From an uncultured Acidimicrobiia bacterium (GTDB lineage: Bacteria; Actinomycetota; Acidimicrobiia; Acidimicrobiales; SZUA-35), in the NCBI GenBank assembly GCA_963781035.1, contig CAWAEN010000015.1:166943-230942 (forward strand): a stretch of 64,000 nucleotides of DNA, given 5' to 3'. Below, in pieces: positions 4,587-57,543 of the stretch; the stretch's first letter is position 1, and each line of letters begins with the position of its first letter. Both the position numbers and the translations under genes were made by a program. The notes under the pieces were generated by a model. That model made no database searches and was not told the origin of the DNA. It was given only the letters and a program-made list of their open reading frames with translations.

Positions 4587-5546
4587 ATGGTTGCCACTCT
4601 GACCGACATCAGCCCCATCACATGGGAACACCCGACAGACCGGGCGGCCCTCGGGGCACTGCAGCAGCTCCCGGGGTTCGACACCGTCCTGCGCAAGGCG
4701 ATCGGCATGTTCGGCGAACGCAACATCCGCATGAGCTACCAGGCCGAGGCGGTCAAGGTCGGCTCATCGCAGTATCCGGACATCCACGAACAGCTGCTGC
4801 GGGTCTGCGACGTCCTCGACACCGACGTGCCGCCGCTCTACATCTCTCAGACGCACTTGGCGAACGCCGGAGCGGTCGGCATGGACCGACCCTTCATCGT
4901 GCTGAACTCCTCGCTGGTCGAACTCTTGAGGCCACGAGAGATGCGGGCCGTCCTCGGTCACGAGGTCGGCCACCTCATGAGCGGACACGCGCTCTACCGC
5001 ACCCTGCTGTTCCTCCTTCTCGACTACGCCAGACCATCGGTGCCCGTGCTCGGCCAGGCGGTCCTGCCGATCACGTTGGCTCTCCAGGAATGGAGCCGGA
5101 AGGCTGAGATCTCGTGCGACCGGGCGGGCCTGCTCGCCACACAGAAGCCAAAGGCCTCATACGGTCTGCTCGCAGCGATGGCCGGCGGAATCCGGGGCCG
5201 AAAGGGTGAAATCGACCTCCCGTCGTTCCTGGCCCAGTCGGACGAGTATTTGGATGCCGAAGGACTCGACGCGTACTACAAGTTCATGTCGACGCTCGGA
5301 CGATCACATCCGTTCCCGGTGGTTCGCGTCGCCGAGCTGCGCAGGTGGATCAGCAGCGGTGCCTTCGACGCCATCGTCGACGGCGACTACGTCCGCCGAG
5401 CCGACGAGCATCAGTACCTCGAAGATGTCAACGAGGCCCGTCGGAACTTCTCCGACACTGCGTCCCACGTCTTCGAAGACACCGAGCGTTACGTCAACAA
5501 CGCACTCCTGGGGTTTGCCGAGAAGGCTGCCGGCCTCTTGCGATAG
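4587..5546 (+). CDS. M48-family zinc metallopeptidase (HtpX-like)
   Basis: 319-aa ORF with an HExxH motif (LGHEVGHLMSGHALY). Confidence 0.85.
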   Translation: MVATLTDISPITWEHPTDRAALGALQQLPGFDTVLRKAIGMFGERNIRMSYQAEAVKVGSSQYPDIHEQLLRVCDVLDTDVPPLYISQTHLANAGAVGMDRPFIVLNSSLVELLRPREMRAVLGHEVGHLMSGHALYRTLLFLLLDYARPSVPVLGQAVLPITLALQEWSRKAEISCDRAGLLATQKPKASYGLLAAMAGGIRGRKGEIDLPSFLAQSDEYLDAEGLDAYYKFMSTLGRSHPFPVVRVAELRRWISSGAFDAIVDGDYVRRADEHQYLEDVNEARRNFSDTASHVFEDTERYVNNALLGFAEKAAGLLR

Positions 5547-5684
5547 TCGGGTCGGCCATGGCTCCACCAGTGACCGCCAACAGTGACTTCTTCCCCTACC
5601 GGCAAGGCCGGATGAACACGACGATCGGCACATGTCTCGATACCCGCGCTCCCTCTTCGGGCCAGACGAATTCGGCGGTGTTCC

Positions 5685-6476
5685 ATGGTGACGATCATCG
5701 ACCTCCCGGAACGTCACCAGCAGTCGTACTTCGTGTGCCTGGAGGACTGGTCGCAAGAAATGGTCGAGGCCGGCGACCACAAACGTGACTGGTTTGCCGG
5801 CGCCGCACAGCACGGGTTGCGAGTGAAGGTCGCGATCGACGACCAGGATCAGGCGGTCGGCATGATCCAGTACCTGCCCATCGAAGAGGCACCGGCGGAA
5901 GGCGTGGGGCTCTACATGATCCTGTGCATCTGGGTGCACGGCTACGACGAAGGAGTCGGGGACGTCCAGCGTCGAGGCATCGGCTCCGCGTTGCTCGAGG
6001 CCGCCGAGGCCGACGCAAGAGACCTCGGGGCCACCGGCATGGCGGCCTGGGGCCTGAGGATCCCGATCTGGATGCGGGCCTCCTGGTTCAAGAAACATGG
6101 ATATCGGGCGGCAGACAACCAAGCCGGCCGGCAGCTCGTGTGGAAGCCGTTCACACCGATGGCTCGGGAGCCGAACTGGATTTCGAGCAAGCCGGTCCCT
6201 CGGGGCGAGCCGGGACAGGTGACGGTGACCGCCTTCAAGAACGGATGGTGTCCGGCGGCAAATCTCGTCTTCGAACGAGCCAGGAAAGCAGCCGACGAAC
6301 TCGGGGACAGAGTCGTTTTCGTCACAATCGACGTGGCAACCAAGGCAGACCTCCTGCACTACGGGCACACTGACGAGGTGTTCGTCGACGGAAAGCCTGT
6401 GCAACGAGGAGCTCCTCCGAGCTACGGGACGATCAAGAAGAAGATCGAGAAACGGCTGCACCGTCTTGCCCGGTGA
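5685..6476 (+). CDS. GNAT-family N-acetyltransferase with a C-terminal thioredoxin-fold-like extension
   Basis: 263-aa ORF. Acetyl-CoA binding-like segment QRRGIGSALLEAAEADARDLG. C-terminal region has GWCPAAN. Confidence 0.7.
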   Translation: MVTIIDLPERHQQSYFVCLEDWSQEMVEAGDHKRDWFAGAAQHGLRVKVAIDDQDQAVGMIQYLPIEEAPAEGVGLYMILCIWVHGYDEGVGDVQRRGIGSALLEAAEADARDLGATGMAAWGLRIPIWMRASWFKKHGYRAADNQAGRQLVWKPFTPMAREPNWISSKPVPRGEPGQVTVTAFKNGWCPAANLVFERARKAADELGDRVVFVTIDVATKADLLHYGHTDEVFVDGKPVQRGAPPSYGTIKKKIEKRLHRLAR

Positions 6477-10913: not shown

Positions 10914-11082
10914 CGACGCAGTCTGCCGCAATCGACCGGTCACCAGCGGGGAGCCGCCGACGGGGCAACCATCCATGGGGGGAGCTGCTGCGATCCTGTT
11001 CAGCGGGGCCGTGGGGAACTCGCCCTAGCCTTACAGCGTTGTGACGGCGGCGTCTCGAGCCGACGTCGCCAGAAAGAACGTG

Positions 11083-12366
11083 ATGACAACCCACCCCGAT
11101 CCCGACGCACCGTTGCGCCTCGCCTATCTCTCGTATCGGTCGAAGCCCACCGTCGGAGGACAGGGCATCTACACCCGGCACCTCACGAAGGCACTCGCCG
11201 ATCTCGGTCATCATGTCGAAGTGTTCTCCGGCCAGCCGTACCCCGAGCTCGACGAACGCATCGGTCTCACGAAGCTGCCGAGCCTCGACATCTTCAACGA
11301 CACCTACCCCGGTCGCTTCCCCGCCTATTGGGAGATCAAGACCAAGGCCGACCTGCTCGAACTGGCCACCTTCAGTACGGGTCAATTCCCCGAGCCACTG
11401 GCGTTCAGTTATCGCGCACTACAGGTTCTGAAGCAGCGGGCCGGCGAGTTCGACCTGGTCCACGACAACCAGTGCCTCGGCTACGGAATCCTCGGGATCG
11501 ACAAGCTGATCCCGACACTCGTGACGCTGCATCATCCCATCACGGTCGACCGTCGCCTCGAGATGGAGGCAGCTCCCAATCGGCGCAAGCGCCTCAGCGT
11601 GGGGCAGTGGTATGGATTCGTGAAGATGCAGGGCCGGGTCGCCAAGCGCATGCCTCGCATCGTCGTGGTCTCGGAGAACTCGATCCAGGACATCCACGAC
11701 GACATGGGCGTCGACCTCGACCGCATGCGTCTGGTCCACGTCGGCGTCGATCCCGATCTGTTCAAGCCGATCCCCGACGTCGAGCGCATCCCTGGCCGAC
11801 TCATCACGACCGCGTCGGCCGATGTCGAACTCAAGGGCCTCAAGTTCCTGCTCGAGGCCATGGCGAAATTGCGGACCGAACGCGATGTCAGCCTCACGGT
11901 GATCGGCCGGGCCAAGCCGGGTGGGCCATCGGCGGAGATGATCGAACGTCTCGGCCTCGGTGAGCACATCCAGTTCGTCACCGGCGTCCCCGACCAGCGC
12001 ATCGTGGAGCTGTACGCCGAGTCCGAGTTGGCCGTCGTCCCGTCGCTCTACGAGGGTTTCTCGCTGCCGGCGATCGAGGCCATGGGATCAGGCACGCCGC
12101 TGGTCGCCACCGACGGCGGGGCGCTCCCCGAGGTCACGGGTGTCGACGGCGAGACCGTGCTGCGCTGCAAGGCCGGCGACGTCGACTCGCTGCGGGTGGC
12201 GCTCGAACGGGGTCTCGACGACCCGGACCTCCGCCACCGGATCGGAGCGGCGGGTCGTGAGCGAGTCAGCGAGCTCTACACATGGCGACAGACCGCGGTT
12301 CGCACCGTGGAGCAGTACCGCGAAGTCATGGCCATGCGCGAGGCGTCGAACCACGAGGCAGTCTGA
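11083..12366 (+). CDS. glycosyltransferase family 4 (GT-B fold)
   Basis: ORF 11041..12366. GGQGIYTRHL near the N-terminus and C-terminal SLYEGFSLPAIEAMGSGTPLVATDGGALPE. Its stop overlaps the next gene's start. Confidence 0.85.
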   Translation: MTTHPDPDAPLRLAYLSYRSKPTVGGQGIYTRHLTKALADLGHHVEVFSGQPYPELDERIGLTKLPSLDIFNDTYPGRFPAYWEIKTKADLLELATFSTGQFPEPLAFSYRALQVLKQRAGEFDLVHDNQCLGYGILGIDKLIPTLVTLHHPITVDRRLEMEAAPNRRKRLSVGQWYGFVKMQGRVAKRMPRIVVVSENSIQDIHDDMGVDLDRMRLVHVGVDPDLFKPIPDVERIPGRLITTASADVELKGLKFLLEAMAKLRTERDVSLTVIGRAKPGGPSAEMIERLGLGEHIQFVTGVPDQRIVELYAESELAVVPSLYEGFSLPAIEAMGSGTPLVATDGGALPEVTGVDGETVLRCKAGDVDSLRVALERGLDDPDLRHRIGAAGRERVSELYTWRQTAVRTVEQYREVMAMREASNHEAV

Positions 12367-13133
12367 TGCTCACCGTCGACTATGACCGCCTCGGCCTCGA
12401 ACCCGGCATGCGAGTGCTCGACCTCGGCGCCGGTTTCGGCCGCCATGCATTCGAAACCGCTCGGCGCGGCGCGTCCGTCGTCGCCGCCGACCTCGCGTTC
12501 GACGAGATGAAGGCCACCCAGGACACGTTCGCGGCGATGTTCCTCGAGGGCGAGCTCCCCGATGGTCTGACCACCGTGACGGTGCAAGCCAACGGCCTCA
12601 CCCTTCCGTTCGCCGACGGTTCGTTCGACCGGATCATCGCCAGCGAGGTGCTCGAACACGTCCCGGACGACCTCGGCGTCATGACCGAACTGTTCAGAGT
12701 GCTGGCTCCCGGCGGCCGTCTCGCCGCGACGGTGCCCGCCCAGCTGCCCGAGCAGGTCTGCTGGTGGATCAACGATGCCTACCACGCGCCGAAATCAGTC
12801 GGCGGCCACGTCCGGATCTACGGGCAGCCCGAGCTTCGGATGAAGCTGGCCTCGGTCGGCTTCGAGCCCGGCGATTCGCACCGTGCCCATGCCCTCCACA
12901 GCCCGTACTGGTGGCTCAAGTGCGCCGTCGGCCTCGACAACGAGGACAACTTCCTCGTGAAGCAGTACCTCAAGCTGCTCACCTGGGACATCGTCGAGGC
13001 GCCGACGCTCACCCGCACGGCCGAGCGGATCCTCAACCCCGTTCTCGGCAAGTCCGTGGTCATCTACGCCGACCGTCCGAGCTCGACCGGCGTCACCGAC
13101 TCCGACAGCGACCGAACGCTCGCCAACGCATGA
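12366..13133 (+). CDS. class I SAM-dependent methyltransferase
   Basis: Motif I VLDLGAGFGRHA. ATG at 12366 shares one base with the upstream TGA. Own stop overlaps the next start (ATGA at 13130-13133). Confidence 0.85.
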   Translation: MLTVDYDRLGLEPGMRVLDLGAGFGRHAFETARRGASVVAADLAFDEMKATQDTFAAMFLEGELPDGLTTVTVQANGLTLPFADGSFDRIIASEVLEHVPDDLGVMTELFRVLAPGGRLAATVPAQLPEQVCWWINDAYHAPKSVGGHVRIYGQPELRMKLASVGFEPGDSHRAHALHSPYWWLKCAVGLDNEDNFLVKQYLKLLTWDIVEAPTLTRTAERILNPVLGKSVVIYADRPSSTGVTDSDSDRTLANA

Positions 13134-14144
13134 TGCAGCTTCCATCCGTCGACGGATTGCTCACGGCGGCCGACCTCCGGTTGTCGGCGGAGACCATCGT
13201 CGACCTCCAGCTCCCGAACGGGATGATCCAGTGGTATCCCGGCGGCCATGCCGACCCCTGGAACCACGTCGAGACCGCGATGGCGCTCAGCACCTGCGGC
13301 TTCGTCGACCAAGCCGAGCTCGCCTATCGCTGGCTGGCCGACATCCAGCGGCCCGATGGGAGCTGGCACAACTACTACACGGCCGACGGCATCGAGGACT
13401 CCAAGCTCGACTCCAACTGCATCGCCTACATCGCAGCCGGGGTGTGGCATCACTTCCTCGCCACGGGCGACCGCGAGTTCCTCGCCGAGTACTGGGATGT
13501 GGTCGAGCGTGCCATCGAGTTCGTCCTCGATCTGCAGACGAAGCGAGGCGAGATCATCTGGGCCAGACACGCCGATGGCAAGCCGTGGAGCTATGCCCTC
13601 CTGACCGGGTCGTCGTCGATCTGTCACAGCCTCCGGTGCGCGGCGTGGATCGCCGAGGCGCTGGGAACGACCTCGACCGCACTGGGTGGAGGCACGTGAT
13701 CGTCTGGCGAGCGTGATCGCCAACCAACCGAATGCGTTCGAGCCGAAGGCTCGATGGGCCATGGACTGGTACTACCCGGTGCTCACCGGTGCGGTGGTCG
13801 GCGACGACGCCGCCAAGATGCTGAGCAAGGGGTGGGAGACCTTCGTGATGCCGGGCAAGGGTGTGCGGTGTGTGTCCGATCGCCCGTGGGTGACGGCGGC
13901 CGAGACCTGCGAATGTGCGCTCGCCCATCTCGCTGTCGGTGAGCGGGCGACAGCGCTGACGATGTTCACCTGGGTCCAGGCACTGCGCGATCGTGACGGC
14001 AGCTACTTCACCGGAATGGTGTTTCCCGAGCTCGTGCACTTCCCCGACCAGGAGCGAAGTGCGTACACGGCAGCGGCCGTGATCCTGCTGGCCGACGCCC
14101 TCCACGGCGTCAACCCCACCAGCACCCTCTTCACCCACCACTGA
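13130..14144 (+). pseudogene. prenyltransferase / squalene-cyclase-repeat (alpha/alpha toroid) family protein, frame-disrupted
   Basis: N-part (QWYPGGHADPWNHVETAMAL...RPDGSWHNYY) lies in frame 12764..13699. C-part (ARDRLASVIANQP...WAMDWYYPV...RDRDGSYFTG) lies in frame 13686..14144. Frames switch near 13665. Confidence 0.7.
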
Positions 14145-41953: not shown

Positions 41954-42107
41954 CGCCCCAAGCTAGTGGAACGGTGCTTCGGTGGAGTTCACACTTCACG
42001 GTTCTGCGAGTTGCGAGCGTCAGCGTTCACACTCGACACGAACGCGAGTTGAGAGCGTCAGCGAGCAACTGAGGAACGGGAGGCCCCAGGGGGCCGACCG
42101 TTCACGT

Positions 42108-44646
42108 TCACTCGGTCTCGGCGAGCTCCGGGGTCGACGGAGGCTGGAAGCCCTCGTGGGCCGTGAAGGTCGAGCTGGCGCTGACCTTCGTCGTCGGTGC
42201 CGACGTCGACGACGATGATCTCGCCGGCGCGGAACTCCTTGTAGAGGAGCTTCTCCGACAGCGGGTCCTCGACCAGACGCTGGATCGCACGACGCAGCGG
42301 ACGAGCACCCAGCGTCGGGTCGTAGCCCTCGTCGGCCAGGTGGTGCTTGGCGTCGTCGGTGAGCTCGAGGCCGATGCCCTGGCCCTCGAGCTGCTCGACG
42401 GTGCGCTTGATCAGCAGGTCGACGATCTCGGTGACCTCGGCCTTGCTCAGCTCGTGGAAGACGATGGTCTCGTCGATGCGGTTGAGGAACTCGGGCCGGA
42501 AGTGCGCCTTCAGCGCGTCGTTGACCTTCTCCTTCATCCGCTCGTAGGTGACGGCCTCGTCGTTCTTGGCGAAGCCGAGGGTGGCCTTGCGCAGATCGTG
42601 GGTGCCGAGGTTGGAGGTCATGATCAGCACGGTGTTGCGGAAGTCGACCGAACGACCCTGCGAGTCGGTGAGACGACCCTCCTCCAGGATCTGCAGCAGG
42701 GTGTTGAAGACGTCGGGGTGGGCCTTCTCGATCTCGTCGAAGAGCACCACGGAGAACGGCTTGCGCCGAACGGCCTCGGTGAGCTGGCCGCCCTCTTCGT
42801 AGCCGACGTAGCCGGGAGGCGAACCGACGAGGCGGCTGACGGTGTGCTTCTCCATGTACTCGGACATGTCGAGCGTGATCAGGGCCTTCTCGTCGCCGAA
42901 CAGGAACTCGGCGAGCGTCTTGGCCAGCTCGGTCTTGCCGACACCGGACGGGCCGAGGAAGATGAACGAACCCGACGGGCGCTTCGGGTCCTTGAGGCCG
43001 GCCCGGGTGCGACGGATCGCCTGGGAGACGGCCTTGATGGCGTCTTCCTGGCCGATGACCCGCTTGTGGAGCTCGTCCTCCATGCGGAGGAGCTTCTCGG
43101 TCTCCTCCTCGGTGAGCTTGTAGACGGGGATGCCGGTCCAGATCGACAGCACCTCGGCGATCGCCTCCTCGTCGACCTCGTCGAACAGATCGACGCCGGA
43201 GGCCTTGATCTCGGCCTCCATCTCCTCCTTTCGGGCGAGGAGCTCCTTCTCCTTGTCGCGGAGACTGCCGGCCTCTTCGAAGTTCTGGTTCTCGACCGCC
43301 GCCTTCTTCTGGTTGACGACGTCGGCGATCTCGGTCTCGAGCTCCTTGAACTCCGGCGGTGTGCTCATGCGCTTGATGCGCAGGCGGGAGCCGGCCTCGT
43401 CGATGAGGTCGATGGCCTTGTCGGGCAGGTGACGGTCGGCGATGTAGCGATCGGCCAGGTTGGCCGCCGCCACGAGCGCCTGGTCGGTGATGGTGACCCG
43501 GTGGTGGCTCTCGTAGCGATCGCGCAGACCCTTGAGGATCTCGATCGTGTGCTCGACGGTCGGCTCTTCGACCTTCGATCGGCTGGAAGCGACGCTCGAG
43601 TGCAGCGTCCTTCTCGAGGTGCTTGCGGTACTCGTCGAGCGTGGTGGCACCGATGGTCTGGAGCTCACCACGAGCCAGCATCGGCTTGAGGATGCTGGCG
43701 GCGTCGATGGCACCCTCGGCCGCGCCGGCACCGACGAGGGTGTGGATCTCGTCGATGAAGAGGATGATGTCGCCGCGGGTCTTGATCTCCTTGAGCACCT
43801 TCTTGAGGCGCTCCTCGAAATCGCCGCGGTAGCGGGAGCCGGCGACGAGTGCACCGAGGTCGAGCGTGTAGAGCTGCTTGCCCGCTGAGGGTGTCGGGCA
43901 CGTCGTCGGCCGCGATCGTCTGGGCCAGGCCCTCGACGATGGCGGTCTTGCCGACGCCGGGCTCACCGATGAGCACCGGGTTGTTCTTGGTGCGGCGGCT
44001 GAGGACCTGCATGACGCGCTCGGTCTCGCGGCATGCGACCGATGACGGGTCGAGCTTCTTCTCGCGGGCCAGCTGGGTGAGGTTGCGACCGAACTGGTCG
44101 AGCACGAGCGAACCGGACTGCGTCTCGCCGCCGCTGCCGCCCGAGGTGGCGGCGGTCTTGTCGCCGCCGCTCGGGACGAGCTGCCCGCACCACCCTGGCC
44201 GACGGGCCGGAGTAGCCGGAGAGCAGCTGGATGACCTGCTGGCGGACCCGGCTGAGGTCGGCGCCGAGCTTGACCAGCACCTGGGCGGCAACGCCCTCGC
44301 CCTCACGGATCAGGCCGAGCAGGATGTGCTCGGTGCCGATGTAGTTGTGACCGAGCTGCAGCGCTTCACGCAGCGAAAGCTCGAGGACCTTCTTGGCCCG
44401 CGGCGTGAACGGGATGTGGCCGCTGGGCGACGAGCCGCCCTGACCGATGATCTCCTCGACCTGGCTGCGCACGGCCTCGAGGGAGATGACGAGCGACTCG
44501 AGCGCCTTGGCGGCAACGCCCTCGCCCTCGTGGATGAGGCCGAGCAGGATGTGCTCGGTGCCGATGTAGTTGTGGTTGAGGAGGCGCGCTTCTTCCTGGG
44601 CCAGGACGACGACTCGGCGGGCTCGGTCGGTGAAGCGTTCGAACAT
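42108..44646 (-). pseudogene. clpC: ATP-dependent Clp protease ATP-binding subunit ClpC, frame-disrupted (at least 5 shifts)
   Basis: [21 protein letters not shown] (ATG 44646); [16 protein letters not shown]; [26 protein letters not shown]; [21 protein letters not shown]. These lie in four frames. Frames switch near 44190, a compensating pair near 44030, then 43875, 43565 and 42185. Confidence 0.92.
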
Positions 44647-44828: not shown

Positions 44829-45839
44829 GTGGCCACGAACCCACTGTCGCTCCTTCCAACCGCTGCCGCCGACAAGGAACGCGTCGAACGCACCCTTCTG
44901 GATGTGGTCCGGATCGACAACGATCCGTACCTCACCGAGATCTCCTCCCACCTGATCAAGGCCGGTGGCAAGCGACTGCGTCCGCTCTTCGCAATCGCCT
45001 CTGCTGCCGCCTCGATGGAGGACGGCTCATCGGTCCACGACGACATCGTCCGCGGCGGTGTCGCCGTCGAACTCGTCCACATCGGGTCGCTCTACCACGA
45101 CGACGTCATGGACGAGGCCGAGATGCGCCGCCAGGTCATCAGCGTCAACGCCCGGTGGGGCAACCTTCGCGCCATCCTGAGCGGCGACTTCCTGCTCGCC
45201 AAGGCATCCGAGATCGCAGCCGACCTCGGTGTCGAGGTCGCCGGCCTGCTCGCCACGACAATCGGCGATCTCTGCCGGGGCCAGGTCGGCGAGCTCCAGA
45301 CGATGTACGACGTCGACCGATCCGAGGAGCAGTACTTCCCGTCGATCGCCGGCAAGACCGCATCGCTGTACGCCGCGGCGTGTCGGATCGGCGCCATCGT
45401 GAGCGACCAGCCCCGCCGTGACATCGACCGGCTCACCGAGTTCGGGCGGCTGTACGGCATGGCCTTCCAGGTGGTCGACGACATCCTCGACGTGATCGCC
45501 ACCGACGAGCAGCTCGGCAAGCCGGCCGGCAACGACATGATCGAAGGCGTGTACAGCCTCCCTGTGATCCACACACTCGCGTGGTCGGAAGGTGGTCTGC
45601 TGCGCGAGCTCCTCACCGACGGTCTCGCCGTCGCCGAGCGCCACAAGGCGATCGACATCGTCAGACGTGGACCCGGTGTTGCGTCGTCACTGGCAGTAGC
45701 GCAGCGCTTCATCGACGAGGCCAAGCAGGTCCTGGCCGACGTCAGCACCAACGAGGCGGCAACCGCCCTGGCCGGCGCAGCCGACCACTTGTTGACGAGC
45801 ATCCCCTTCGACCGAACCGAGTCCGAGACCCACGCCTGA
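44829..45839 (+). CDS. polyprenyl diphosphate synthase (trans-isoprenyl diphosphate synthase family)
   Basis: First and second Asp-rich motifs ([23 protein letters not shown]). GTG start. Confidence 0.9.
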
Positions 45840-45920
45840 ACCCGAGGCAATGACCCCCGATTCTGTGGGGCTCAAACCCGAGGTTTGAGCCCCACGAATC
45901 GGGGCTGTCAGCCTCGGGTT
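45838..45920. repeat. palindromic intergenic repeat, copy E (nested 83-bp palindrome)
   Basis: ACCCGAGGC..TGACCCCCGATTCTGTGGGGCTCAAACC-CGA-GGTTTGAGCCCCACGAATCGGGGCTGTCA..GCCTCGGGT. Near-perfect long hairpin. Confidence 0.7.
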
Positions 45921-45940
45921 GGGGGAAGTAGCGTGCGAGA

Positions 45941-47089
45941 ATGGCTGGGATCCTGGGAGCACTCGAGGCACCGAGAATCTCGCCTCCCACCCGGCACTCA
46001 CTGCTGCGCGGTGTCCTCGCCTACCGCGCGATCGTCGGCGTCTGGATGACCGTCGTGTTCGCGTGGGAAATCTGGGAACGCAGCGGAAACGACCCGCTCG
46101 ACGTGAAACCGGACGTCGCCCACCCCGTCAGCGGCGCCGTTCTGATGGCCATCGCCTGGTCGGTCACTGCGGTCATCGGATTGTCCTACGCCCGCTCGGC
46201 CGACTCGGTCCTCTCCCCCGTCCGGATCCTCCCCGAGATAGCGATCGCCGCTGTCCTCCTCGGCGTCGACACCTGGGTCTATGGCTCCCCTCACTCCCAG
46301 GCGCTTCCCACCGTGTGGCCGCTGGCTGTCGTCTTCACCGTCGCCATCGCCGCCGGCACCCGGCCGGCGGTCGTCACCGGCATCGGTCTCGGCCTGGTCC
46401 GCTACGCCGGATGGCTCGTGTTCCCCTACGAGGACACCAGCCGGTGGAGCCTCGCCCGCGTCGCCAGCACCGTCCTCTTCGGTGTCGCCGGGTGGGTCGC
46501 CGGCTACCTGCTCGACTCCCAGGCAGCGGCCGATCGCTCGATCTCCGCATTTCGGGCCCGCGAAGAAGTCGCCCGCACGTTGCACGACGGGGTGCTCCAG
46601 ACCCTGGCCGTGATCCAGCGCCGCAGCGACGACACCGAACTCGTCCACCTCGCGCGAACCCAGGAACTCGAGCTGCGGGACTACCTCTTCGGCGGAGCGG
46701 AAGTCCACGCCGATCTGGCGGCTGCGCTCCGGGCTGCGGCCCGGCGGGCCGAGGAGCGGTACTCCATGCGAGTCGATGTCATCTGCGCCCCCGACCTCCC
46801 CGAAGGCAACGAGCGGGAGATCCACGCGCTGAACGGCGCCGTGACCGAAGCGCTCACCAACGCGGCCAAGCACGGAGCCAGCGAGTCGGCAACCGTCTAC
46901 GCCGAACCCGGCGAGGACACCACGTTCTTCGTCTCGATCAAGGACCGCGGCACCGGCTTCGACCTGCTCGATCACTCGGCCGGTGAAGGCCTCGCCGGTT
47001 CGATCAGAGGCCGCATCGCTGATGCCGGAGGCTCGGTCGAGATCACGTCGAAGCCGGGGAGGGGCACCGAGGTCACGCTGCGTCTCTGA
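45941..47089 (+). CDS. sensor histidine kinase (HisKA_3 / NarL-partner type, MacS-like polytopic N-terminus)
   Basis: Five hydrophobic segments, then the H-box ARTLHDGVLQTLAVI and an HATPase region (NAAKHG...DRGTGF...GGSVEI). Confidence 0.88.
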   Translation: MAGILGALEAPRISPPTRHSLLRGVLAYRAIVGVWMTVVFAWEIWERSGNDPLDVKPDVAHPVSGAVLMAIAWSVTAVIGLSYARSADSVLSPVRILPEIAIAAVLLGVDTWVYGSPHSQALPTVWPLAVVFTVAIAAGTRPAVVTGIGLGLVRYAGWLVFPYEDTSRWSLARVASTVLFGVAGWVAGYLLDSQAAADRSISAFRAREEVARTLHDGVLQTLAVIQRRSDDTELVHLARTQELELRDYLFGGAEVHADLAAALRAAARRAEERYSMRVDVICAPDLPEGNEREIHALNGAVTEALTNAAKHGASESATVYAEPGEDTTFFVSIKDRGTGFDLLDHSAGEGLAGSIRGRIADAGGSVEITSKPGRGTEVTLRL

Positions 47090-47147
47090 ACGGCGCCTCG
47101 AAGCGATGGACCGAACCAGCCCGACCTCCTGTGCGAAACTCGCGGCC

Positions 47148-47780
47148 ATGAGTTTCACCAGCCATGTGACGGTCGTACTCGCTGATGATCACCCGATCTG
47201 GCGATCCGGGGTACGCGCCGACCTCGGCGAGAACTTCCACGTCCTGGCCGAGGCGAGCGACGCCACCGAAACCATCGAGGCCATCACCAAGCACCGACCC
47301 GACCTCGTCGTCTGCGATCTGAACATGCCCAACGGCGGCGGGCTTCGCGTCGCCAAGGAGTGCGGGGAACTCACCAACATCGTGATGCTCACCGTGTCGG
47401 AAGCCGAGCGCGATCTTCTCGACGCCGTGGCGGCCGGAGCCATCGGCTACCTGGTGAAATCCACACCGCCAGGCGAACTCCGGACCGAGCTCTGGAAGGC
47501 TGCACAGGGTGAACCCGTCTTCTCCCCCGCGCTGGCCAGTCTCGTGCTCGGCGAGTTCCGCAAGATGTCGAAGGACCAGGGCCCGACCAACGCCCTGTCC
47601 GAACGCGAGCGCGAGGTCCTCCAGCACGTGGCGAGAGGCCACACGTACAAAGAGATCGGCGAGGAGCTGTTCATCTCACCGAAGACGGTCGAGAACCACG
47701 TCCGCAACATCCTCGGAAAGCTCCATCTCAGTCGGAAACAGGAACTGATCCGCTTCGCCATCGAGCACGGAATCGAGTAG
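47148..47780 (+). CDS. NarL/LuxR-family response regulator
   Basis: Receiver domain (VVLADDHPIWRSG...DLVVCDLNMP) and LuxR HTH (LSEREREVLQHVARGHTYKEIGEELFISPKTVENHV). ATG at 47148. Confidence 0.92.
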   Translation: MSFTSHVTVVLADDHPIWRSGVRADLGENFHVLAEASDATETIEAITKHRPDLVVCDLNMPNGGGLRVAKECGELTNIVMLTVSEAERDLLDAVAAGAIGYLVKSTPPGELRTELWKAAQGEPVFSPALASLVLGEFRKMSKDQGPTNALSEREREVLQHVARGHTYKEIGEELFISPKTVENHVRNILGKLHLSRKQELIRFAIEHGIE

Positions 47781-47946
47781 TTCGACATCCACCTGGACAC
47801 GAGTGGTCGGGCACATCTGCCTGCGCTCGCCAAGTCGATGAACCCACGAATGTGTTGATCGCTGAGGACGTTCACTCTGGGCTGTCCAGCGACGATGAAC
47901 GTACCGTTCCCTGGTGGGCGCAACCGCACAAGGTGACGATGCTGTG

Positions 47947-49861
47947 ATGGACTCGACGGCGCGGGGTGAAACCCCCGTGGCACGGCTGCGTCATGAGGCG
48001 GGCCTGACCGCAGGCCAGACACTCGCGCTGAGTCCCGGACGGTTCCGCTTCGGGCCGCTGCGCTCGAGCCACGGCGGCCTGGTCAGTGGCAACCCGGAGG
48101 TCGTGAGCTTCGAGCTCACCATCCAAGATGACGGATCTGCGCTGCTCACGGCCGGGCGTGAAGCGATCGCCGTCGAGGGAGTGGTCATCGACGGCCCCGT
48201 CGCGCTCGAGGATGGCGACGTCGTCCAGTTGAGCACCGATCACTTCGTCCTCGAGACCGCGGCGAGCACGACTGGTCGACGCCACCGCGAAACGATCGAG
48301 CCGCGTCCGATCCATCCGGTTGCGTCGCCGAGCATGACGATGTGGCTGGCCCTTTTCGGCGCGATCACGCTGATCGGCTGCGGAGCCGGCCTCTTCGACG
48401 GGCGCCTGTTCGGAATCGCACTCCTCGGCCTCGCCGGCATCGTCGGCACGCTCATGGTTCGATCGCGACAACGCCGGCGAGCGTCAGAGGCCCATCGTGT
48501 CGCCGTCGACAACGCCCGGTCGCTCTTCTTCTCCGAGATCGTCGCAGCAAGAAAGAACGCAGCCCAGAAGCTTCGCCTGGCGACCAACACACCGGCCACC
48601 ATCGCCAGTCGGGCCGGCGATCGCTCGAAGTCGCCGTCTCACGGTCAACGCATTCTCGCCACCATCGCCTCTGGCGACCGAGGGTGGGAGCCACCCGTCG
48701 TCGTTCACCGCGACCCCGGATGGAACCACGCTGCGATCGTCGACGAACTCTCGTTTCTGCCCGCCATTCCGTTCAGCGTCGATCTCGACGCGGGCCCGCT
48801 GGCCGTGGTCGGCCCCCGAGCGGCGACCCTGGCCGTTGCTCGTCACCTCATCACGACCGCACTGTGCGTCGAGGGTGGCGGCGCGACCATCAGCACCGAC
48901 CTGCCGACCGACTGGCGTTGGCTGCACGCCGCCGAACGAATCTCGATCCACGTCCTCGACCACGTCAGTGGCGACCTCGGCCCACGAACCGTGGTGCTCG
49001 CCGACTCGATCGAGGCCCTCCATTCGAGGTTCGCAATCGACGTGAACTTCAGCCATGTCATGGTGATCGACGACGACGGCAAAGCCACGATCACGACCGG
49101 TGACGGCGGCGGCGGATCCGGCTTCGTGCCCCACGGCATCACGACTCAACATGCCGACGACGTCCAGCAGCTCCTGGCCGACCCCGCGATCGCGCTCGAC
49201 GCCGAAGGGGACACCGTCGATCCGGTGCGCACCGAACTGCGACTGCTCGGTTGCGCCCACCGTCGACCGGTCGGCCATGCTCGATCTCGACGTCTTCGAC
49301 ACCGACCGCCTGCTCGTGACCGGCACCAACCGCTCGAAGAATCGGAATGTTCTCGCCACCGCCGCGCTTCAGCAGGCCGGCATACATCCCGGCCGTGCCC
49401 TCTTCGTCCTCGATCGCGGCGACCGGTCCTTGATCCGGTTGGCACAGCTCGAATCATGCGCCCGCTACGTGACCATCGACCAGGTCGACGGGGTCGATCA
49501 GCTGATCTGGGATCTCGCCGCGGCCACCGCCGATCCCGACTCCGAACCCGGCCTTCTGCTTGCCCCCGACCTCTGGAGCACGATCGCCTTCTACCGGGCG
49601 ACCGGCCACGAACATCTCGCCGACCGCATCGACGCCGTGGTCGCCAAGATGCAACGAGTCCCGCTCGCGGTCTCATCGACGACGCCGGCCGAAGCCCCGA
49701 CGGCCTCATTCCTGGTGTGGATCGAAACCACCGACGATCTTGCCGAGGTCAGACAACCCGGCGGAAGCGGTGTGCTCGACATCCGATACCTTCCCGGAAT
49801 CGACCTCACAGGCTCTGTTGCTCGCCTCAAGAACACCCCAACGCAGGAGATTCGACGATGA
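47947..49861 (+). pseudogene. FHA-like domain / 2-TM / double degenerate FtsK-SpoIIIE (EssC/EccC-like) domain protein, one frame disruption
   Basis: N-terminal FHA-like fold (GRFRFGP...VVSFELTIQDDGSALLTAG...LEDGDVVQLSTDHFVLE). Two TM helices (WLALFGAITLIGCGAGLF, IALLGLAGIVGTLMV). Two P-loop-like positions lack GKS/T (AVVGPRAATLAVARHL; LLVTGTNRSKNRNVLATAAL). Switches from frame 47914.. to frame 49100..49861 near 49255. Confidence 0.55.
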
Positions 49862-50778
49862 CCGAGACCACCTGGGCCGGCCGATCGGCCACACCGCCTC
49901 GCCCCGAAGACGACGATCGACGCTCGAGGTGGCTGCCGGTTGCCGGGGTCGTCGCACTGCTCGGTCTCATCGGCGGAGGCGGCTACCTACTCGGGAGCAT
50001 CGGCAACGACGACGCAGTCGACGCCCAAGCCGACGCTCCCGCCACCGACACCACGGTCGTCCTCTCCGCGACCTCGGTGCCACTCGACGACGCGGCCACA
50101 ACTGAAGCAGAGCCGTCGACCACGGCTCCGCCGACCACAGCACCGTCCACGACTGCGCCGCCAACCACCGCAGCACCAACCACCGCAGCGCCCACCACTG
50201 CGCCTTCGACGACCGCACCGTCGACCGATGAGGCCGAGGTCGTGGTCACCGTCGCCGACGGTGAGACCCGCGGTGCGGTTCTCCGTGGCGGCGTGCTCTA
50301 TCTCGGAGGTGCAGTTCCGAATCGAGCCGTCGCCGATCAGATCATCGAGCGGGCAGCCGCCGTCGTCGGCGAGGACAGGATCGTCGACCAGTACGTGGTC
50401 GATCCCGATGCCCCCGTTCCCGCAGGCGCCCCCCTCTACGTGGACGACGTCGTGTTGTTCGCCTACGGATCACCCACGTTCGATCCGCAGTTCGCCCCCC
50501 TGCTCGACCTCGGACTCCTGCTCCTCAGCCAGAACCCGCAGGTCACGATCACGGTCATCACCCACACAGACGCATCCGGCAGCGAGAGCTACAACCAGGA
50601 GCTTTCGGTCAGACGCGGCCAATCCGTCGCCCAATACTGGATGGATCGGGGCATTCCGATCGCGCAGATCATCATCGACGCCAGAGGCGAACTCGATCCC
50701 ATCGCCAGCAACGACAATGCCGAGGGGGCCCAGATGAACCGACGGGCCGAGTTCTTCGTCGAAGGTCTACTCGGCTGA
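49858..50778 (+). CDS. OmpA-family peptidoglycan-binding protein (TM, Pro/Thr linker, BON-like domain, OmpA_C; ArfA/OmpATb-like architecture)
   Basis: The ATG at 49858 overlaps the upstream TGA (ATGA). TM helix VAGVVALLGLIGGGGYLL. PT-rich linker. C-terminal TDASGSESYNQELSVRRGQSVAQYW...NRRAEF. Confidence 0.85.
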   Translation: MTETTWAGRSATPPRPEDDDRRSRWLPVAGVVALLGLIGGGGYLLGSIGNDDAVDAQADAPATDTTVVLSATSVPLDDAATTEAEPSTTAPPTTAPSTTAPPTTAAPTTAAPTTAPSTTAPSTDEAEVVVTVADGETRGAVLRGGVLYLGGAVPNRAVADQIIERAAAVVGEDRIVDQYVVDPDAPVPAGAPLYVDDVVLFAYGSPTFDPQFAPLLDLGLLLLSQNPQVTITVITHTDASGSESYNQELSVRRGQSVAQYWMDRGIPIAQIIIDARGELDPIASNDNAEGAQMNRRAEFFVEGLLG

Positions 50779-50792
50779 AACGCTGAGCTCCG

Positions 50793-50850
50793 CCCCCCCC
50801 GTTCTGCGGCACTCAACCCGCACTAGTGAGGGCTCAGAGCCGCAAATCGG
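50793..50850. repeat. palindromic intergenic repeat, copy C
   Basis: CCCCCCCCGTTCTGCGGCACTCAACCCGCACTAGTGAGGGCTCAGAGCCGCAAATCGG. Sits at the convergent OmpA/lysS junction and overlaps the lysS stop. Confidence 0.6.
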
Positions 50851-52258
50851 TGGTGGTTTCGGGCCGGAGGGTGGGGAACAGCACCACGTCGCGGATCGTG
50901 TGCACGTTCGCGAGCAACATCACCAATCGGTCGATACCGATCCCGAGACCTCCCGTCGGCGGCAGCCCGTACTCGAGCGCACGCAGGTAGTCCTCGTCGA
51001 CCACCATCGCCTCGTCGTCTCCCGCCGCCTTCCGGCCGGCCTGCTCCTCGAAGCGGAGGCGCTGCTCCACCGGGTCGATCAACTCGCTGAACGCGTTGCA
51101 CAACTCGCGCCCTGCGACGATGCCCTCGAACCGCTCGGTGAACCCGGCCAGCTCGCGGTGGTCGCGCGACAACGGCGACACTTCCTTCGGATAGTCGACC
51201 ACGAACACGGGATCCCAGAGCACGCCCTCGACCATCTTCTCATAGACCTCGAGGACGATCTTGCCCGGTCCGTCGCTGTCCTTGTAGCCGACCTCGAACT
51301 CGTCAGCCGCCGACCGGAGCTCCCCGATCGGCATGTCCAGACGAAGTGCCCGACCGGTGTGCTCCTCGATCAGCTGCAGCATCGACGCCCGGCGCCAGGG
51401 AGCGGCCAGGCTGATCGTGCGATCCCCGTACTGGAGTTCGGTGGTGCCGTGGAGCTCGATCGCCAGGTGTTCCACGAGCTGCTCGACGAGCTCCATGATG
51501 TCGTTGTAGTCGGCGTAGGCCTGATAGAGCTCGAGCATCGAGAACTCAGGATTGTGGCGGGTGCTGATGCCTTCGTTGCGGAACACTCTGGCGATCTCGA
51601 ACACCCGATTCAGTCCGCCGACCGTCAACCGCTTGAGGTAGAGCTCGGGGGCGATGCGGAGGTAGAGGTCGAGATCCAGAGCGTTGTGGTGCGTCGTGAA
51701 CGGCTTGGCCAACGCGCCGCCGGGAATCGGATGAAAGACCGGCGTCTCGACCTCGATGAAGTCGCGCTCCTCCAACCATCGTCTGATCAACGACACCGTC
51801 TTCGACCGCAGAATGAAGGCCTCGCGGCTCTCGGAGGTGACCCACAGGTCGACGTACCGCTGGCGGTACCGAAGGTCGGGATCGGTGATCCCGTGGAACT
51901 TGTCAGGGAACGGCCGCTTGGCCTCGGCCAGGAGCACCCATTCCTGCACCTTCACGCTCAGTTCCCCCTTGCGGGTCTTCATGACCTCGCCGGTGACCCC
52001 GATCCAGTCACCCAGGTTCAAGTCGCAGAAATCATCGAAGTCGGGCGTGACCTTGCTCGGAGCGAACAGCTGCACTCGTACGCCGCTGTCCTGGAGGGTG
52101 CCGAAGGCCAGCTTGCCCTGCACCCGACGCAGCATCAGCCGCCCGGCGATGGTCACCTCGACACCCGTCTCGGTGCCGTCTTCGATCGCGTCGTACTCGG
52201 CCCGCAGTGATGCGGCGCTGGCAGTCGGAGCGAAACGGTGGGGAATGGTGCGAGACAT
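50834..52258 (-). CDS. lysS: lysine--tRNA ligase (class II)
   Basis: 474-aa intact ORF with class II motifs (FIEVETPVFHPIPGGA, FRNEGISTRHNPEFSMLE, GLGIGIDRLVMLL). Confidence 0.95.
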   Translation of the reverse strand: MSRTIPHRFAPTASAASLRAEYDAIEDGTETGVEVTIAGRLMLRRVQGKLAFGTLQDSGVRVQLFAPSKVTPDFDDFCDLNLGDWIGVTGEVMKTRKGELSVKVQEWVLLAEAKRPFPDKFHGITDPDLRYRQRYVDLWVTSESREAFILRSKTVSLIRRWLEERDFIEVETPVFHPIPGGALAKPFTTHHNALDLDLYLRIAPELYLKRLTVGGLNRVFEIARVFRNEGISTRHNPEFSMLELYQAYADYNDIMELVEQLVEHLAIELHGTTELQYGDRTISLAAPWRRASMLQLIEEHTGRALRLDMPIGELRSAADEFEVGYKDSDGPGKIVLEVYEKMVEGVLWDPVFVVDYPKEVSPLSRDHRELAGFTERFEGIVAGRELCNAFSELIDPVEQRLRFEEQAGRKAAGDDEAMVVDEDYLRALEYGLPPTGGLGIGIDRLVMLLANVHTIRDVVLFPTLRPETTTDLRL

Positions 52259-53242: not shown

Positions 53243-53726
53243 TCAGGAATCGAGAGGGCCGAGCGACGTCACCGCGCCGAAGGCCGTGTCTGGGTCATAC
53301 CCGAGCGCAGCGATTTCGTCGGCCAGGTCGGGAGCGATCTCGAGCAGGGGAACGACAACGAAGTTGCGTTGGAACATCCGTGGGTGGGGCACGGTGAGCT
53401 CGGGTTCATCGACCGTGATCCCGTCGATCCACAACACATCGACGTCGAGGGTCCGTGGGCCCCATCGGATTCGCCGCTCGCGACCGGCGGCACGCTCGAG
53501 GGAGCGACAGAGATCGAGCAACTCCCGGGGCTGCAATGCTGTCCTGAGCTCGACAACGATGTTCAGGTAGGCGCCTTGTTCCGGCCCTCCGACGGGTTCG
53601 GTTTCGTACACAGACGAGGAGACAACGAGGTCTGGTATCGATCGCCACCGCGGCGGCGAGGTACCCACGACGATCGCCGAGGTTGGTCCCCAGACCGAGG
53701 AACACCCGGCGGCCCAGCGGGATCAC
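53243..53726 (-). pseudogene. folK: 2-amino-4-hydroxy-6-hydroxymethyldihydropteridine diphosphokinase, frame-disrupted
   Basis: N-terminus VFLGLGTNLGDRRGYLAAAVA lies in frame 53406..53726. The rest (SSSVYETEPVGGPEQGAYLN...WGPRTLDVDVL...PHPRM) lies in frame 53243..53668. Frames switch near 53645. Start overlaps the folB stop. Confidence 0.88.
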
Positions 53727-54744: not shown

Positions 54745-55558
54745 TCAGCGGTGCGCCTCGATCACCGCGAGGGCCTCTGCGGTCGCCGCAACGTCGTGGA
54801 CTCGCACCATGTCGACACCGGCCAGAGCAGCCTGGCATGCGGTCGCGACCGAACCCTCGAGACGATCGTCGGCAGCTACGGGCTCGACTCGGTCAGATTT
54901 CGCGAGCAGCGTGCCCAACATCGATTTTCGGCTGGTGCCGACCACCACCGGGTGACCGGAGTCGACAAATCGTCCGATCGACGCAAGGAGGGCCAGGTTG
55001 TGTTCGAGCTTCTTGCCGAATCCGAATCCGGGATCGATCCACACGTGGTCGACGCCGAACGATCGTGCACGATCAGCTCGCGCAACGAGATACGCCAGTA
55101 CATCGTCGACCACCGAGACGTACGAAGGGTCCGACTGCATCGTCTCCGGCACGCCACGCATGTGCATGGCAATCCATCCGGCTCCGACATCGGCTGCCAC
55201 CTCCGCCAGCGATGCCGACACGTCGTTGATGACCACCGCCCCTGCCTTCACCGCGGCGCGAGCCACCGGCTCGTGGCGGGTGTCGATCGAAACGGGACAG
55301 AACTCCGAGATCGCCTCGATGACGGGGACCACTCGTTGCAGCTCCACCTCGATGGGGACGGGGGCCGCTCCCGGACGTGTCGATTCTCCACCGACATCGA
55401 TCAGATCGGCCCCCTCGATCGATCATCGTCCTCGCTCGATCAATGGCGGTGTCGACCTCGATGTTGATCCCTCCATCGCTGAATGAATCAGGGGTGACGT
55501 TGAGGATCCCGAGCACGAGAGGATGACGACGATCGGGGTCGGCGGGGAGCTTCATCAT
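54745..55558 (-). pseudogene. folP: dihydropteroate synthase, frame-disrupted
   Basis: N-terminus LGILNVTPDSFSDGG lies in frame 55073..55558. The rest (DLIDVGGESTRPGA...SIDTRH...INDVS...DPGFGFGK) lies in frame 54745... Frames switch near 55425. Confidence 0.9.
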
Positions 55559-56432: not shown

Positions 56433-57543
56433 TCAGGAGCCGGTCGAGGCGGTCATGCGGCTGATCCACAGCTCCGGCAACCGGATCTCGTCGATCGCCG
56501 GCAAGGCATCCGGACCGGTCCACACTTGATCGAACAGTTCACGCCCGCCGGCGGACTCGACGGCGCTGATGAACTTCTGACCCTCTTCGTACTGCGCCAA
56601 CTTGGCTTCGAAACCGAGGAGACGCTGGATGACCTTGGTCGGACCGGATCCGGCGTTGCGGCGTTTGGTGAACACGCGAGCAAATCGAGGTTGCGACGGA
56701 ATCTGATCGCGACCGGCGCGGCTCATCGTGACGTCGCCATGACCTTCGAGCAGACTCATCAGACCGCTGACCTTGTCGAGCGTCTCGCGTTGCTTCGGCG
56801 AGGCCAGGAGCTGCTGGAGCCCGCCATCGGTGAGCCCATCGATGCCGGCTCGCTTCTTCTCGATGGCCGACTTGGCGGCGTCGATGAAGCGGCTCGGGTC
56901 GGGATCGACGTCGTCCATGAGCTCGTTGACGAGCGAAAGGAAGTAGGGACGGAGCCATGGAACTGCGGTGAACTGCGCCCGATGGGTGCATTCGTGGATC
57001 GCGATCCAGAGTCGGAATTCCTTCGGCGGAAAGCCGTAGCGCTTCTCCATGGAGAGCACGTTCGGACCGACGTAGTAGACGAGGTCCTGCGACTCGGGGT
57101 TCTCGTCTTCGATGATCAGCAGGTCGTACTGGCCGATGACCCGGCCGGACATCCAGCCGAGCAATGCACCGACCTCGGCTCCGGCGAACTTCGGGCCGAC
57201 TTTCTCTGCGACCGGTTCGAAGACGCTGGCGATCGCTGCTCCGATCCGCGACGGCTCGTCGTCGGACGGCTCGTTGAGTTTCTCGAGCAACGGGCGCGTG
57301 AGGCGATCGAAGCTGGCCAGGTTGGCGTCGACCCAACCAGCACGATCAGTGACACGGCCGCGGGCCGGACCGGCCAGTGAAACGAGGCCGGTCTCCGCAG
57401 CGACGAGGTCTTCTGCCTGACTGGTGAGCGAGATCATGTCGGTCGCCAGCGTCTCGAGCGCGCTCGCGGTCGACATCGGCGTCGGAGTTTCCGATCTTCG
57501 CCGCGACTCGGCGGGCGGTGCCCCAATCGACCGAGACGCCCAT
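56433..57543 (-). pseudogene. zinc-dependent metalloprotease (DUF2342 family), frame-disrupted near the N-terminus
   Basis: HECTHRAQF motif in frame 56433..57599. The family-typical N-terminus MGVSVDWGTARRVAAKIG lies in frame 57346..57543. Frames switch near 57475. Confidence 0.75.

Follow-up and report, generated by a model that had tools for sequence, protein, structure and literature searches.

A motorless EccC/EssC-like membrane protein coupled to an OmpA-type partner in Acidimicrobiia, probably an envelope scaffold

A conserved gene pair in the clpC-lysS gap

The DNA analyzed here, referred to as the window, is a stretch of 64,000 nucleotides (nt) with a G+C content of ~66% from an uncultured Acidimicrobiia bacterium (GenBank assembly GCA_963781035.1, contig CAWAEN010000015.1, positions 166,943 to 230,942 of the forward strand). 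It contains a gap bordered on one side by clpC (minus strand) and a polyprenyl synthase gene (44829-45839, plus strand) and on the other side by lysS (50834-52258, minus strand). Four plus-strand genes are located between them and encode, in this order, a MacS-like histidine kinase, a NarL-type regulator, a membrane protein termed X (47914-49861) and a protein of 306 amino acids (aa) with a transmembrane (TM) helix, a linker and an OmpA_C domain (49858-50778), termed the partner. The ATG of the partner overlaps the TGA of gene X in an ATGA at 49858-49861. These four same-strand genes and the overlap had been described in a first-pass annotation made from the sequence alone, whose observation as a whole was confirmed and whose interpretation was partly supported. 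X and its partner constitute a conserved and undescribed pair, which is probably a passive envelope scaffold and not a secretion machine.

Gene X requires one change of frame to be read through. The junction is CTC-G-GTT, with a surplus G at 49249/49250 within CTC-GG-TT (49246-49252), and without one of the two Gs the frame reads ...RTELRLLVAPTVDRS... and runs colinear with P0001, the 81% identical orthologue from the syntenic locus L001. Compared with their 95-99% identical counterparts at L001, several other genes of the window were also frame-broken, namely clpC (42058-44646) four times, and folK (~53641-53726), folP (~55355-55558) and a zincin gene (~57461-57543) once each. The breaks in these genes indicate an indel-prone assembly, so the break in X was read as an error, most likely of assembly. 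This bears out the earlier suspicion and moves its position from near 49255 to 49249/49250. Altogether, coding sequence in this part of the assembly is broken by indel errors about once every 2 kb. X comprises ~648 aa when read from the GTG at 47914 and 637 aa from the ATG at 47947. The GTG appears the more likely start, since a conserved -10-like hexamer lies 6-8 nt ahead of it in 11 loci.

A search of 5.8 billion clustered proteins identified only 27 relatives of X (cluster representatives), all of them from metagenome-assembled genomes (MAGs) of Acidimicrobiia and displaying 33-81% identity. Among these, 26 were intact with lengths of 627-735 aa; P0024 (497 aa) has no N-terminus. The intact orthologues show that X is one gene and not two unrelated ones. 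Pfam and NCBIfam gave no significant match, FHA and FtsK included, for X or for its 27 relatives, and none of these relatives had a precomputed Pfam domain. The family alignment nevertheless contained ~90 invariant columns, with the motifs ASGD..W, FLPAxPF, G.R...L..RH, DW.W, G..PHG.T..A, LDRGDR.LIRL.QL..C..Y..D, FYR and a C-terminal D-x-T-x-x-x-A. The ratio of nonsynonymous to synonymous substitution rates (dN/dS) between X and its L001 orthologue was 0.30, and X is under purifying selection. The corresponding values were 0.125 for the partner, 0.084 for the kinase, 0.016 for the regulator, 0.057 for the polyprenyl synthase and 0.044 for lysS.

The genes for X and the partner were adjacent at L001/2/8, L003/13, L004/12, L005, L006, L009, L010, L011, L014 and L015, where X displayed 28-81% identity to that of the window. 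In all five called loci having the partner, the two genes shared the 4-bp overlap. The pair was also found outside the clpC-lysS gap, at L003 and L005. The two genes were thus neighbours in every lineage examined that encodes a full-length X, with the exception of L007, and their co-conservation and translational coupling are supported. Genes for the kinase and the regulator adjoined X in the lineage of the window (including L001) and at L009, L010, L011 and L014. The conserved core is therefore X with its partner; the two-component system has long been present in the gap and often adjoins X, without being obligatory.

No WXG100-like or other type VII component had been noticed near X in the first-pass annotation, and none was among the called genes within +/-8 kb at the syntenic L001. 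Extended to six loci (L001 and L003-L007), the same +/-8 kb contained no called gene for WXG100, EccB/D/E, EssA/B, EsaA, YukD-like proteins or a kinase. A paralogue of X was not found inside the 64-kb window.

Kinship of X with EccC/EssC and loss of the motor domains

An AlphaFold2 model of X was built on the family alignment and had a mean predicted local distance difference test score (pLDDT) of 80.8. It displayed a beta-sandwich (residues 12-104), two helices (131-150 and 152-211) and two alpha/beta domains (237-411 and 448-620). The best Foldseek match in the PDB was 9qks_H, EssC from the T7b core unit of B. subtilis together with its DUF (domain of unknown function), with an E-value of 2.6e-10. 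Further matches were 6umm_E (ESX-3) and 7b9s_2 (ESX-5), which represent the N-terminal TM/stalk part of EccC, and 4lya, 4n1a and 4nh0, which are EssC/EccC ATPase domains (D2-D3); generic RecA/KaiC folds ranked after these.

Profile searches gave evidence of this kinship that is independent of the structure model. The profile of the X family was searched against 1.84 billion representatives and obtained 474 matches at E<=1e-3. Beyond the family itself, it matched proteins of 1300-1460 aa, such as P0168 (E 7.7e-44) and P0169 (E 3.4e-34), which carry Pfam FtsK_SpoIIIE and match the NCBIfam models EssC (TIGR03928, E 1e-146) and EccCa (3e-94). These long relatives aligned with X twice, residues 11-391/422 of X with their positions ~80-560 and residues 445-590 with ~915-1090. 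X itself stayed below the cutoffs of the curated families (TIGR03928, TIGR03924/5 and Pfam FtsK_SpoIIIE), its score against TIGR03928 being 8.8 bits (E 0.26) with a cutoff of 778. Taken together, fold and profile matches to EssC/EccC-like proteins bear out the EssC/EccC-like architecture proposed earlier and tie the central domains of X to this group, and we regard it as highly probable that X belongs, in truncated form, to the EccC/EssC lineage.

The N-terminal, cytoplasmic domain of X (47974-48261) adopts an FHA fold in the model. Foldseek aligned it with the FHA domains of Ki-67 (2aff/1r21, TM-score 0.69) and CT664 (3gqs, TM-score 0.74) at E ~2e-5, and a profile search of the PDB gave a weak match to the Ki-67 domain (E 0.005-0.013). 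The FHA-like N-terminus noted earlier is thus supported by fold and profile but not by Pfam or NCBIfam. In the X family, the invariant residues G36-P37, S54-F55-x-L57 and E72 appear to stand at the places of GR, SxxH and the N of the NG turn in FHA domains; the hidden Markov model (HMM) alignment backs the Glu-for-Asn position only. The FHA domains of EssC have no phospho-threonine site either and bind the EssB pseudokinase instead (PMC11217815). Control of X by phospho-threonine, as suggested before, is not supported by these motifs, which appear to read GP, SFxL and E and not GR, SxxH and N.

The FHA domain is followed by a hairpin of two TM helices, WLALFGAITLIGCGAGL and LFGIALLGLAGIVGTLMV (48343-48459, helices assigned by DSSP), and a long stalk helix extending to ~48582. 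The two TM helices recognized in the first reading thus form a hairpin in the model, and it matches the TM/stalk part of the N-terminal EccC chains. Basic residues are located on both sides of the hairpin, and both termini of X are cytoplasmic.

The first alpha/beta domain together with a linker spans 48652-49179 and contains the conserved motifs ASGD..W, FLPAxPF, GPRxxTLAVARH, DWRWL and GFxPHGIT..HA. Positions ~180-420 of the family profile aligned with the stretch that separates D1 from the TM helices in EssC-like proteins, and a 454-aa relative (P0170) matched positions 94-277 of the EccCa model (E 3e-14). The fold match agreed with this placement. This domain is the EccC 'DUF' pseudo-ATPase and not a decayed Walker-type nucleotide-binding domain.

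The second alpha/beta domain (49277-49828; residues 445-620) is a single FtsK/SpoIIIE-type domain aligning to the D2 region (~915-1090) of the long relatives. Its domain i-Evalue with P0168 was 1.8e-7 in the library of 1.8e9 sequences; direct matches were weak, to positions 802-881 of TIGR03928 and to the D2 part of 5fv0/4lya (E 0.11 for the latter). The P-loop of this domain reads GTNRSKN, and the FtsK 'DxKG..L..L' strand has its counterpart in LDRGDRSLIRLAQL. Judged by sequence pattern, LLLAPDLW occupies the putative Walker B position, where an invariant Leu would replace the Glu that is catalytic in FtsK-type ATPases. X ends with a conserved D-L-T-x-x-V-A, in which the Thr is invariant and Val or Ile occupies position +3; as a speculation, this could be a docking peptide.

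The two P-loop positions of X are VVGPRAATLAVARH (48805-48846) and VTGTNRSKNRNVLAT (49316-49360), and both strings are devoid of the GKS/T pair, as first noted. No GK[ST]/Walker A was found in any of the 28 sequences of the X family, so the degeneracy of the active site holds in all orthologues. In the long relatives the sole canonical Walker A, GTTG[AS]GKS, is located in D1 at ~535-660, and their D2 reads, for example, YGVHRETTSNTLAT. Judging from these alignments, the P-loop of the D2-type domain was already degenerate in the full-length relatives or ancestor, and the decisive change in X is the absence of D1. X has neither D1 nor D3. The idea of two degenerate FtsK modules therefore stands for the D2-type domain only; the first module was never a P-loop domain, and the real loss consists of D1 and D3. 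Read in this way, X is an FHA/TM hairpin/stalk/DUF/D2-type protein, a motorless derivative of EccC/EssC.

The same searches revealed two other groups. One consists of full-length FHA-bearing EssC/EccC-like proteins of 1300-1460 aa in which D1 alone has a Walker A (P0169 at L018 10001-14155, P0168, P0186, P0211 and others). P0169 is an 'orphan': its gene neighbourhood is metabolic, and neither WXG100 nor any other type VII gene was called within 10 kb of it. The other is a large set of 400-460-aa proteins (many entries within P0171-P0284, and P0170) that contain only an FHA-like head, a membrane segment and the EccC-type DUF. FHA-TM-DUF proteins of this kind occur without an OmpA neighbour.

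The OmpA-type partner, the upstream region and the two-component system

The partner matched Pfam OmpA (PF00691) with 59.2 bits (E 5.1e-16; cutoff 27.2 bits), and a profile of 30 partner orthologues matched Pal in the PDB (E 2.5e-16). The model of its C-terminal domain (~50452-50760) aligned by Foldseek with OmpA-like domains at TM-scores of 0.78-0.84 and root-mean-square deviations of 1.5-1.7 A. The motif for binding peptidoglycan (diaminopimelic acid, DAP), TDxxG...N..LSxxR / NRR, is kept, as H236 T237 D238, G241, N246, L249 S250, R253 G254 and N294 R295 R296 are invariant in the 30 sequences, within the conserved strings HTDxxG..N..LS.RRG and NRRAEF. The OmpA_C domain is accordingly predicted to bind peptidoglycan.

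Toward the N-terminus lies a BON-like unit (~50269-50406), for which the model predicted a beta-beta-alpha-beta arrangement at residues 138-181 with a pLDDT of 80-88. Over 174 columns, the partner model aligned to Rv0899 (2l26) with 28% identity, and the distant partner relatives P0076, P0077, P0099 and P0108 carry PF04972. In the partner itself, BON (PF04972) remained below the Pfam threshold (E 0.41, 11.4 bits, cutoff 27 bits). From the layout of TM helix, Pro/Thr linker, BON and OmpA_C given by the first-pass annotation, the helix, the linker and OmpA_C were clearly retrieved, but BON only weakly. The linker is rich in Pro, Thr and acidic residues and hypervariable in both length and composition.

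The TM helix of the partner (49933-49995) is preceded by a basic RRSR and followed by acidic residues. These flanking charges place the N-terminus inside and the C-terminus outside. The first 14 residues (N-tail, 49858-49899) were conserved as strongly as OmpA_C, with M1, W6, A7, R9 and P14 invariant, and T5, G8 and A11 conserved in at least 90%. This cytoplasmic tail bears the motif T-W-A-G-R-S. The X-linked OmpA proteins form a conserved subgroup of their own. There is also a paralogous TM-BON-OmpA group (P0065, P0069-P0079 and P0087) that starts with MSELEELPSWAGRS and has the same W-A-G-R-S core. Two of its members, P0072 (L016 6001-7086) and P0071 (L017 6001-7044), are encoded at another conserved locus (FrhB, UDG, His_Phos_1, DUF3090 ... 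HTH_17, OmpA, UvrD) without a gene for X. The FrhB/UDG/His_Phos_1/DUF3090 block at L016/L017 also adjoins P0170 at L019 (8001-9365). P0188, a 649-aa FHA/DUF-type protein from an Acidimicrobiales MAG, and the SWAGRS-BON-OmpA paralogue P0087 may share one contig, the longest contig for both being 95,264 bp. A reading of the pair as a defence system was rejected, as PADLOC gave no match for X, and for the partner the sole matches were those of its OmpA_C domain to ZorB/MotB models.

Upstream of X, a conserved 16-nt promoter-proximal motif, TGAGGACGTTCACTCT, is located at 47863-47878 and a -10-like hexamer, TACCGT, at 47901-47906. The same order was found in 11 of 12 distinct loci (the window, L001, L003-L007, L009-L011 and L014; not L015): the motif (family consensus TGAGGAnnnTCGCCCT) stands 22-23 nt ahead of a TAnnnT hexamer, and this hexamer keeps a fixed distance of 6-8 nt to the ATG or GTG. 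For P0007, P0012 and P0026, the gene callers picked the same leaderless-type start. This spacing fits a leaderless X mRNA. The 16-nt motif occurs as a single exact copy in the 64-kb window, is kept whether or not the two-component system adjoins X, and is a candidate regulator-binding site. Several loci have it as a near palindrome (AGGACGATCGCCCT). TGAGGAC, the left half of the motif, is similar to the published MacR box, TGAGTACnnGTACTCA. Recognition by an ECF (extracytoplasmic function) sigma factor was considered for the motif and rejected, the 22-23 nt between it and the -10-like element being too long. No credible Rfam family was matched in 45700-51000.

The histidine kinase gene (45941-47089) encodes a multi-TM N-terminus and the Pfam domains HisKA_3 (0.01) and HATPase_c (1.3e-9). 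The protein aligned over its full length (20-381 to 5-365 of 367) with the NCBIfam model HK_morpho_MacS (NF047322) at E 2.5e-41, and its 142.1 bits are below the 300-bit cutoff. At E<=1e-30 the kinase had 1212 homologues, some with DUF5931; the X family comprised 27. The regulator gene (47148-47780, start refined) encodes a NarL/LuxR-family response regulator of 210 aa with Pfam Response_reg (1.1e-19) and GerE (1.9e-19); its best NCBIfam match was NarL and it was 99% identical to its L001 orthologue. Control of X by a MacS-type kinase, as put forward in the first reading, gains from the MacS-like sequence and from adjacency in about half of the lineages, but loses from the far larger kinase family (1212 matches) and from the score below the equivalog cutoff.

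In the same gap of a 5-Mb Acidimicrobiales genome (L020), the kinase and regulator genes are followed by genes for a 746-aa polytopic membrane protein (weak DUF2157) and a 201-aa D2-type protein (10980-13903). The latter is free-standing, was matched by the X profile with E 6e-26 and carries the VIDRSDRSLIRLRQL motif. The 746-aa membrane protein was also found between regulator and X at L010 (3628-5766) and upstream of X at L006 (3-2162). Three tandem copies of a 23-nt unit (~GTGATGCCGGTGTGACCGGATCGA) are located at L020 10836-10980, between the regulator gene and the gene for the 746-aa protein.

A proposed envelope scaffold and its alternatives

The EccC/EssC ATPase of type VII secretion, called TsxC in the nomenclature of PMC11217815, shares with X an FHA fold at the N-terminus (present in EssC and the TsdC/TseC types), a two-helix hairpin with both ends inside, a stalk, the DUF pseudo-ATPase and a D2-type FtsK-like domain. 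X differs in having one FHA domain where EssC has two, and one FtsK/SpoIIIE domain in place of D1-D3, without D1, D3 or Walker A. It comprises ~640 aa compared with 1300-1500 aa, there are no WXG100 or other core genes near it, and it is coupled to an OmpA_C protein. The novel subtypes T7SSc-j have ATPases with four predicted NTPase domains each and a WXG100 partner (PMC11217815), and that survey of type VII variants contains no mention of OmpA or peptidoglycan for any subtype. Our literature search retrieved no paper joining Acidimicrobiia with type VII secretion and none describing a degenerate EccC/FHA protein paired with OmpA.

The partner resembles ArfA/OmpATb (Rv0899) of Mycobacterium tuberculosis in its order of N-terminal membrane helix, BON-type unit and OmpA_C. 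However, sequence profiles align the OmpA_C part only, the BON unit of the partner being below threshold, and the partner has in addition a long Pro/Thr/acidic linker and the conserved cytoplasmic TWAGRS tail. It is encoded beside an EccC-like protein and not beside arfB/arfC, the genomic partners of ArfA. A single-pass or lipid-anchored OmpA_C protein encoded beside the membrane core of a machine is also known from TagL/TssL of the type VI secretion system (T6SS), the MotB/PomB stators and PorE of the type IX secretion system (T9SS), which were among the fold and sequence matches. This likeness is an analogy of role only. Those OmpA_C proteins are paired with components unrelated to EccC, and there is neither a stator-type nor a TssL-type N-terminal domain here. 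With MacRS of Streptomyces coelicolor (SCO2121/2120), the system shares a kinase aligning full length to the MacS model and a NarL-type regulator; it differs in that the kinase, with 142 bits and a cutoff of 300, is not an equivalog, the host belongs to Acidimicrobiia, and the regulator is no more than a candidate for acting on the X promoter.

In its cautious form, our interpretation is that X is a catalytically inert EccC/EssC derivative co-translated with an OmpA anchor and serving as an envelope scaffold, with a probability of roughly 0.6. Since X is devoid of D3 and of D1, the only Walker-A domain of its full-length relatives, it would be unable to act as a secretion motor on its own. What it keeps, namely the FHA head, the membrane hairpin with its stalk, the DUF pseudo-ATPase and one D2-type domain, could form a cytoplasmic platform for protein interactions, probably oligomeric as in its relatives. 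The partner, presumably single-pass with its N-terminus inside and its C-terminus outside and co-translated with X, would hold the BON-like unit and OmpA_C outside the cell on its long flexible linker and would fix the platform to the peptidoglycan of the cell wall. Contact between the two proteins may take place through the membrane helices and possibly through the cytoplasmic TWAGRS peptide of the partner. The operon would be read from the conserved leaderless-type promoter with the 16-nt site ahead of it, at which the MacS-like kinase and NarL-type regulator are the obvious candidates to act. As a specific model, a two-protein scaffold spanning the envelope in this manner is tentative, and we would place it somewhat short of even odds.

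Several observations weigh against the scaffold interpretation. At L007, X (P0007, 53% identical; 4360-6476) is followed by lysS after 130 bp, with no OmpA-type gene. L020 encodes the D2-type protein alone, without the FHA/TM/DUF part and without the OmpA gene, so that from these two loci the partnership of X with the OmpA protein is not obligatory. The kinase and regulator genes adjoin X in only about half of the lineages, being absent at L003, L004, L005, L007 and L015 (L006 is cut upstream), and the motif does not recur ahead of the kinase gene. Compared with its neighbouring genes, X evolves 3-7 times faster. [ST]-W-A-G-R-S also heads the paralogous BON-OmpA group encoded without X, and the motif may thus bind something other than X. 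Finally, the sequence leaves room for ATP binding without the P-loop lysine.

A bolder version, which we hold to be unlikely, would see an ATP-independent envelope system derived from a fossilised type VII ATPase. In it, a ring of pseudo-ATPases would still be able to bind peptides as the family does, and would clamp either the TWAGRS of the partner, with its W-x-G triplet, or the D-L-T-x-x-V-A tail of X itself, and would couple wall sensing by BON/OmpA_C to the cytoplasmic platform. The related modules, namely the 400-460-aa FHA-TM-DUF proteins, the free D2-type proteins and the paralogous SWAGRS-BON-OmpA proteins, would then form a combinatorial toolkit across Acidimicrobiia.

Alternatively, X and the OmpA protein could be the membrane and anchor part of a type VII-like export apparatus energised in trans, forming mixed rings with a full-length, D1-active paralogue encoded elsewhere. 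Full-length relatives with a Walker A in D1 do exist and are the closest matches of X outside its family; the orphan P0169, which has no type VII neighbours, may need partners from elsewhere, and OmpA anchoring domains occur in other secretion machines, with TagL (T6SS), PorE (T9SS) and Dot/Icm chains among the fold matches. However, neither WXG100 nor type VII core genes were called near X in the six loci and no paralogue of X is present in the window, and we consider such an apparatus improbable.

A signalling module, in which the pair serves the MacS-like two-component system as accessory sensors or outputs at the envelope and not as a tether, is likewise improbable. Kinase and regulator are encoded directly upstream of X in the window and at L001, L009, L010, L011 and L014, they precede a polytopic membrane protein and the free D2-type protein in the same gap at L020, and the conserved 16-nt motif, whose left half is similar to the MacR box, lies ahead of X. 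In Streptomyces, MacR directly controls genes for membrane proteins and lipoproteins (PMC9739842). Yet X was found without the two-component system at L003, L004, L005, L007 and L015, and all of these loci but L015 keep the motif. In addition, the kinase family greatly exceeds that of X in size (1212 compared with 27 matches), and the kinase is below the MacS equivalog cutoff.

It is also conceivable, and in our judgement very unlikely, that the adjacency is incidental. X would then act by itself, for instance by regulating EccC-type ATPases or serving as their decoy, and the OmpA protein would be an ordinary wall-associated protein. The missing OmpA gene at L007, the paralogous BON-OmpA proteins encoded at another locus without X and the FHA-TM-DUF proteins without an OmpA neighbour would fit this. 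Against it stand the 4-bp overlap, which is kept across 33-81% identity and in two genomic contexts, and the separate conserved subgroup formed by the X-linked OmpA proteins. A decaying pseudogene left over from a lost type VII system, as the broken frame, the lost catalytic motifs and the fast evolution might suggest, was rejected and is largely refuted by a dN/dS of 0.30, well under 1, by the same kind of break in essential genes of this assembly, by intact orthologues with many invariant residues and by the conserved promoter.

To our knowledge, type VII secretion ATPases have been described as machines with three motors that are invariably accompanied by WXG100 substrates. The lineage of X is a conserved one that dropped the only active motor domain, kept the hairpin, the DUF and a D2-type domain, and became tied to a peptidoglycan-binding partner. 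As the X family escapes Pfam and NCBIfam, its profile could annotate several hundred dark proteins. The interest lies mainly in the fields of type VII secretion and pseudo-enzymes, and its reach is limited by the uncultured hosts. If the pair does form a complex, it would offer a natural 'minimal' context for the roles of DUF and D2 apart from ATP hydrolysis, and for how an EccC-type membrane assembly may be positioned relative to the cell wall in a monoderm actinobacterium.

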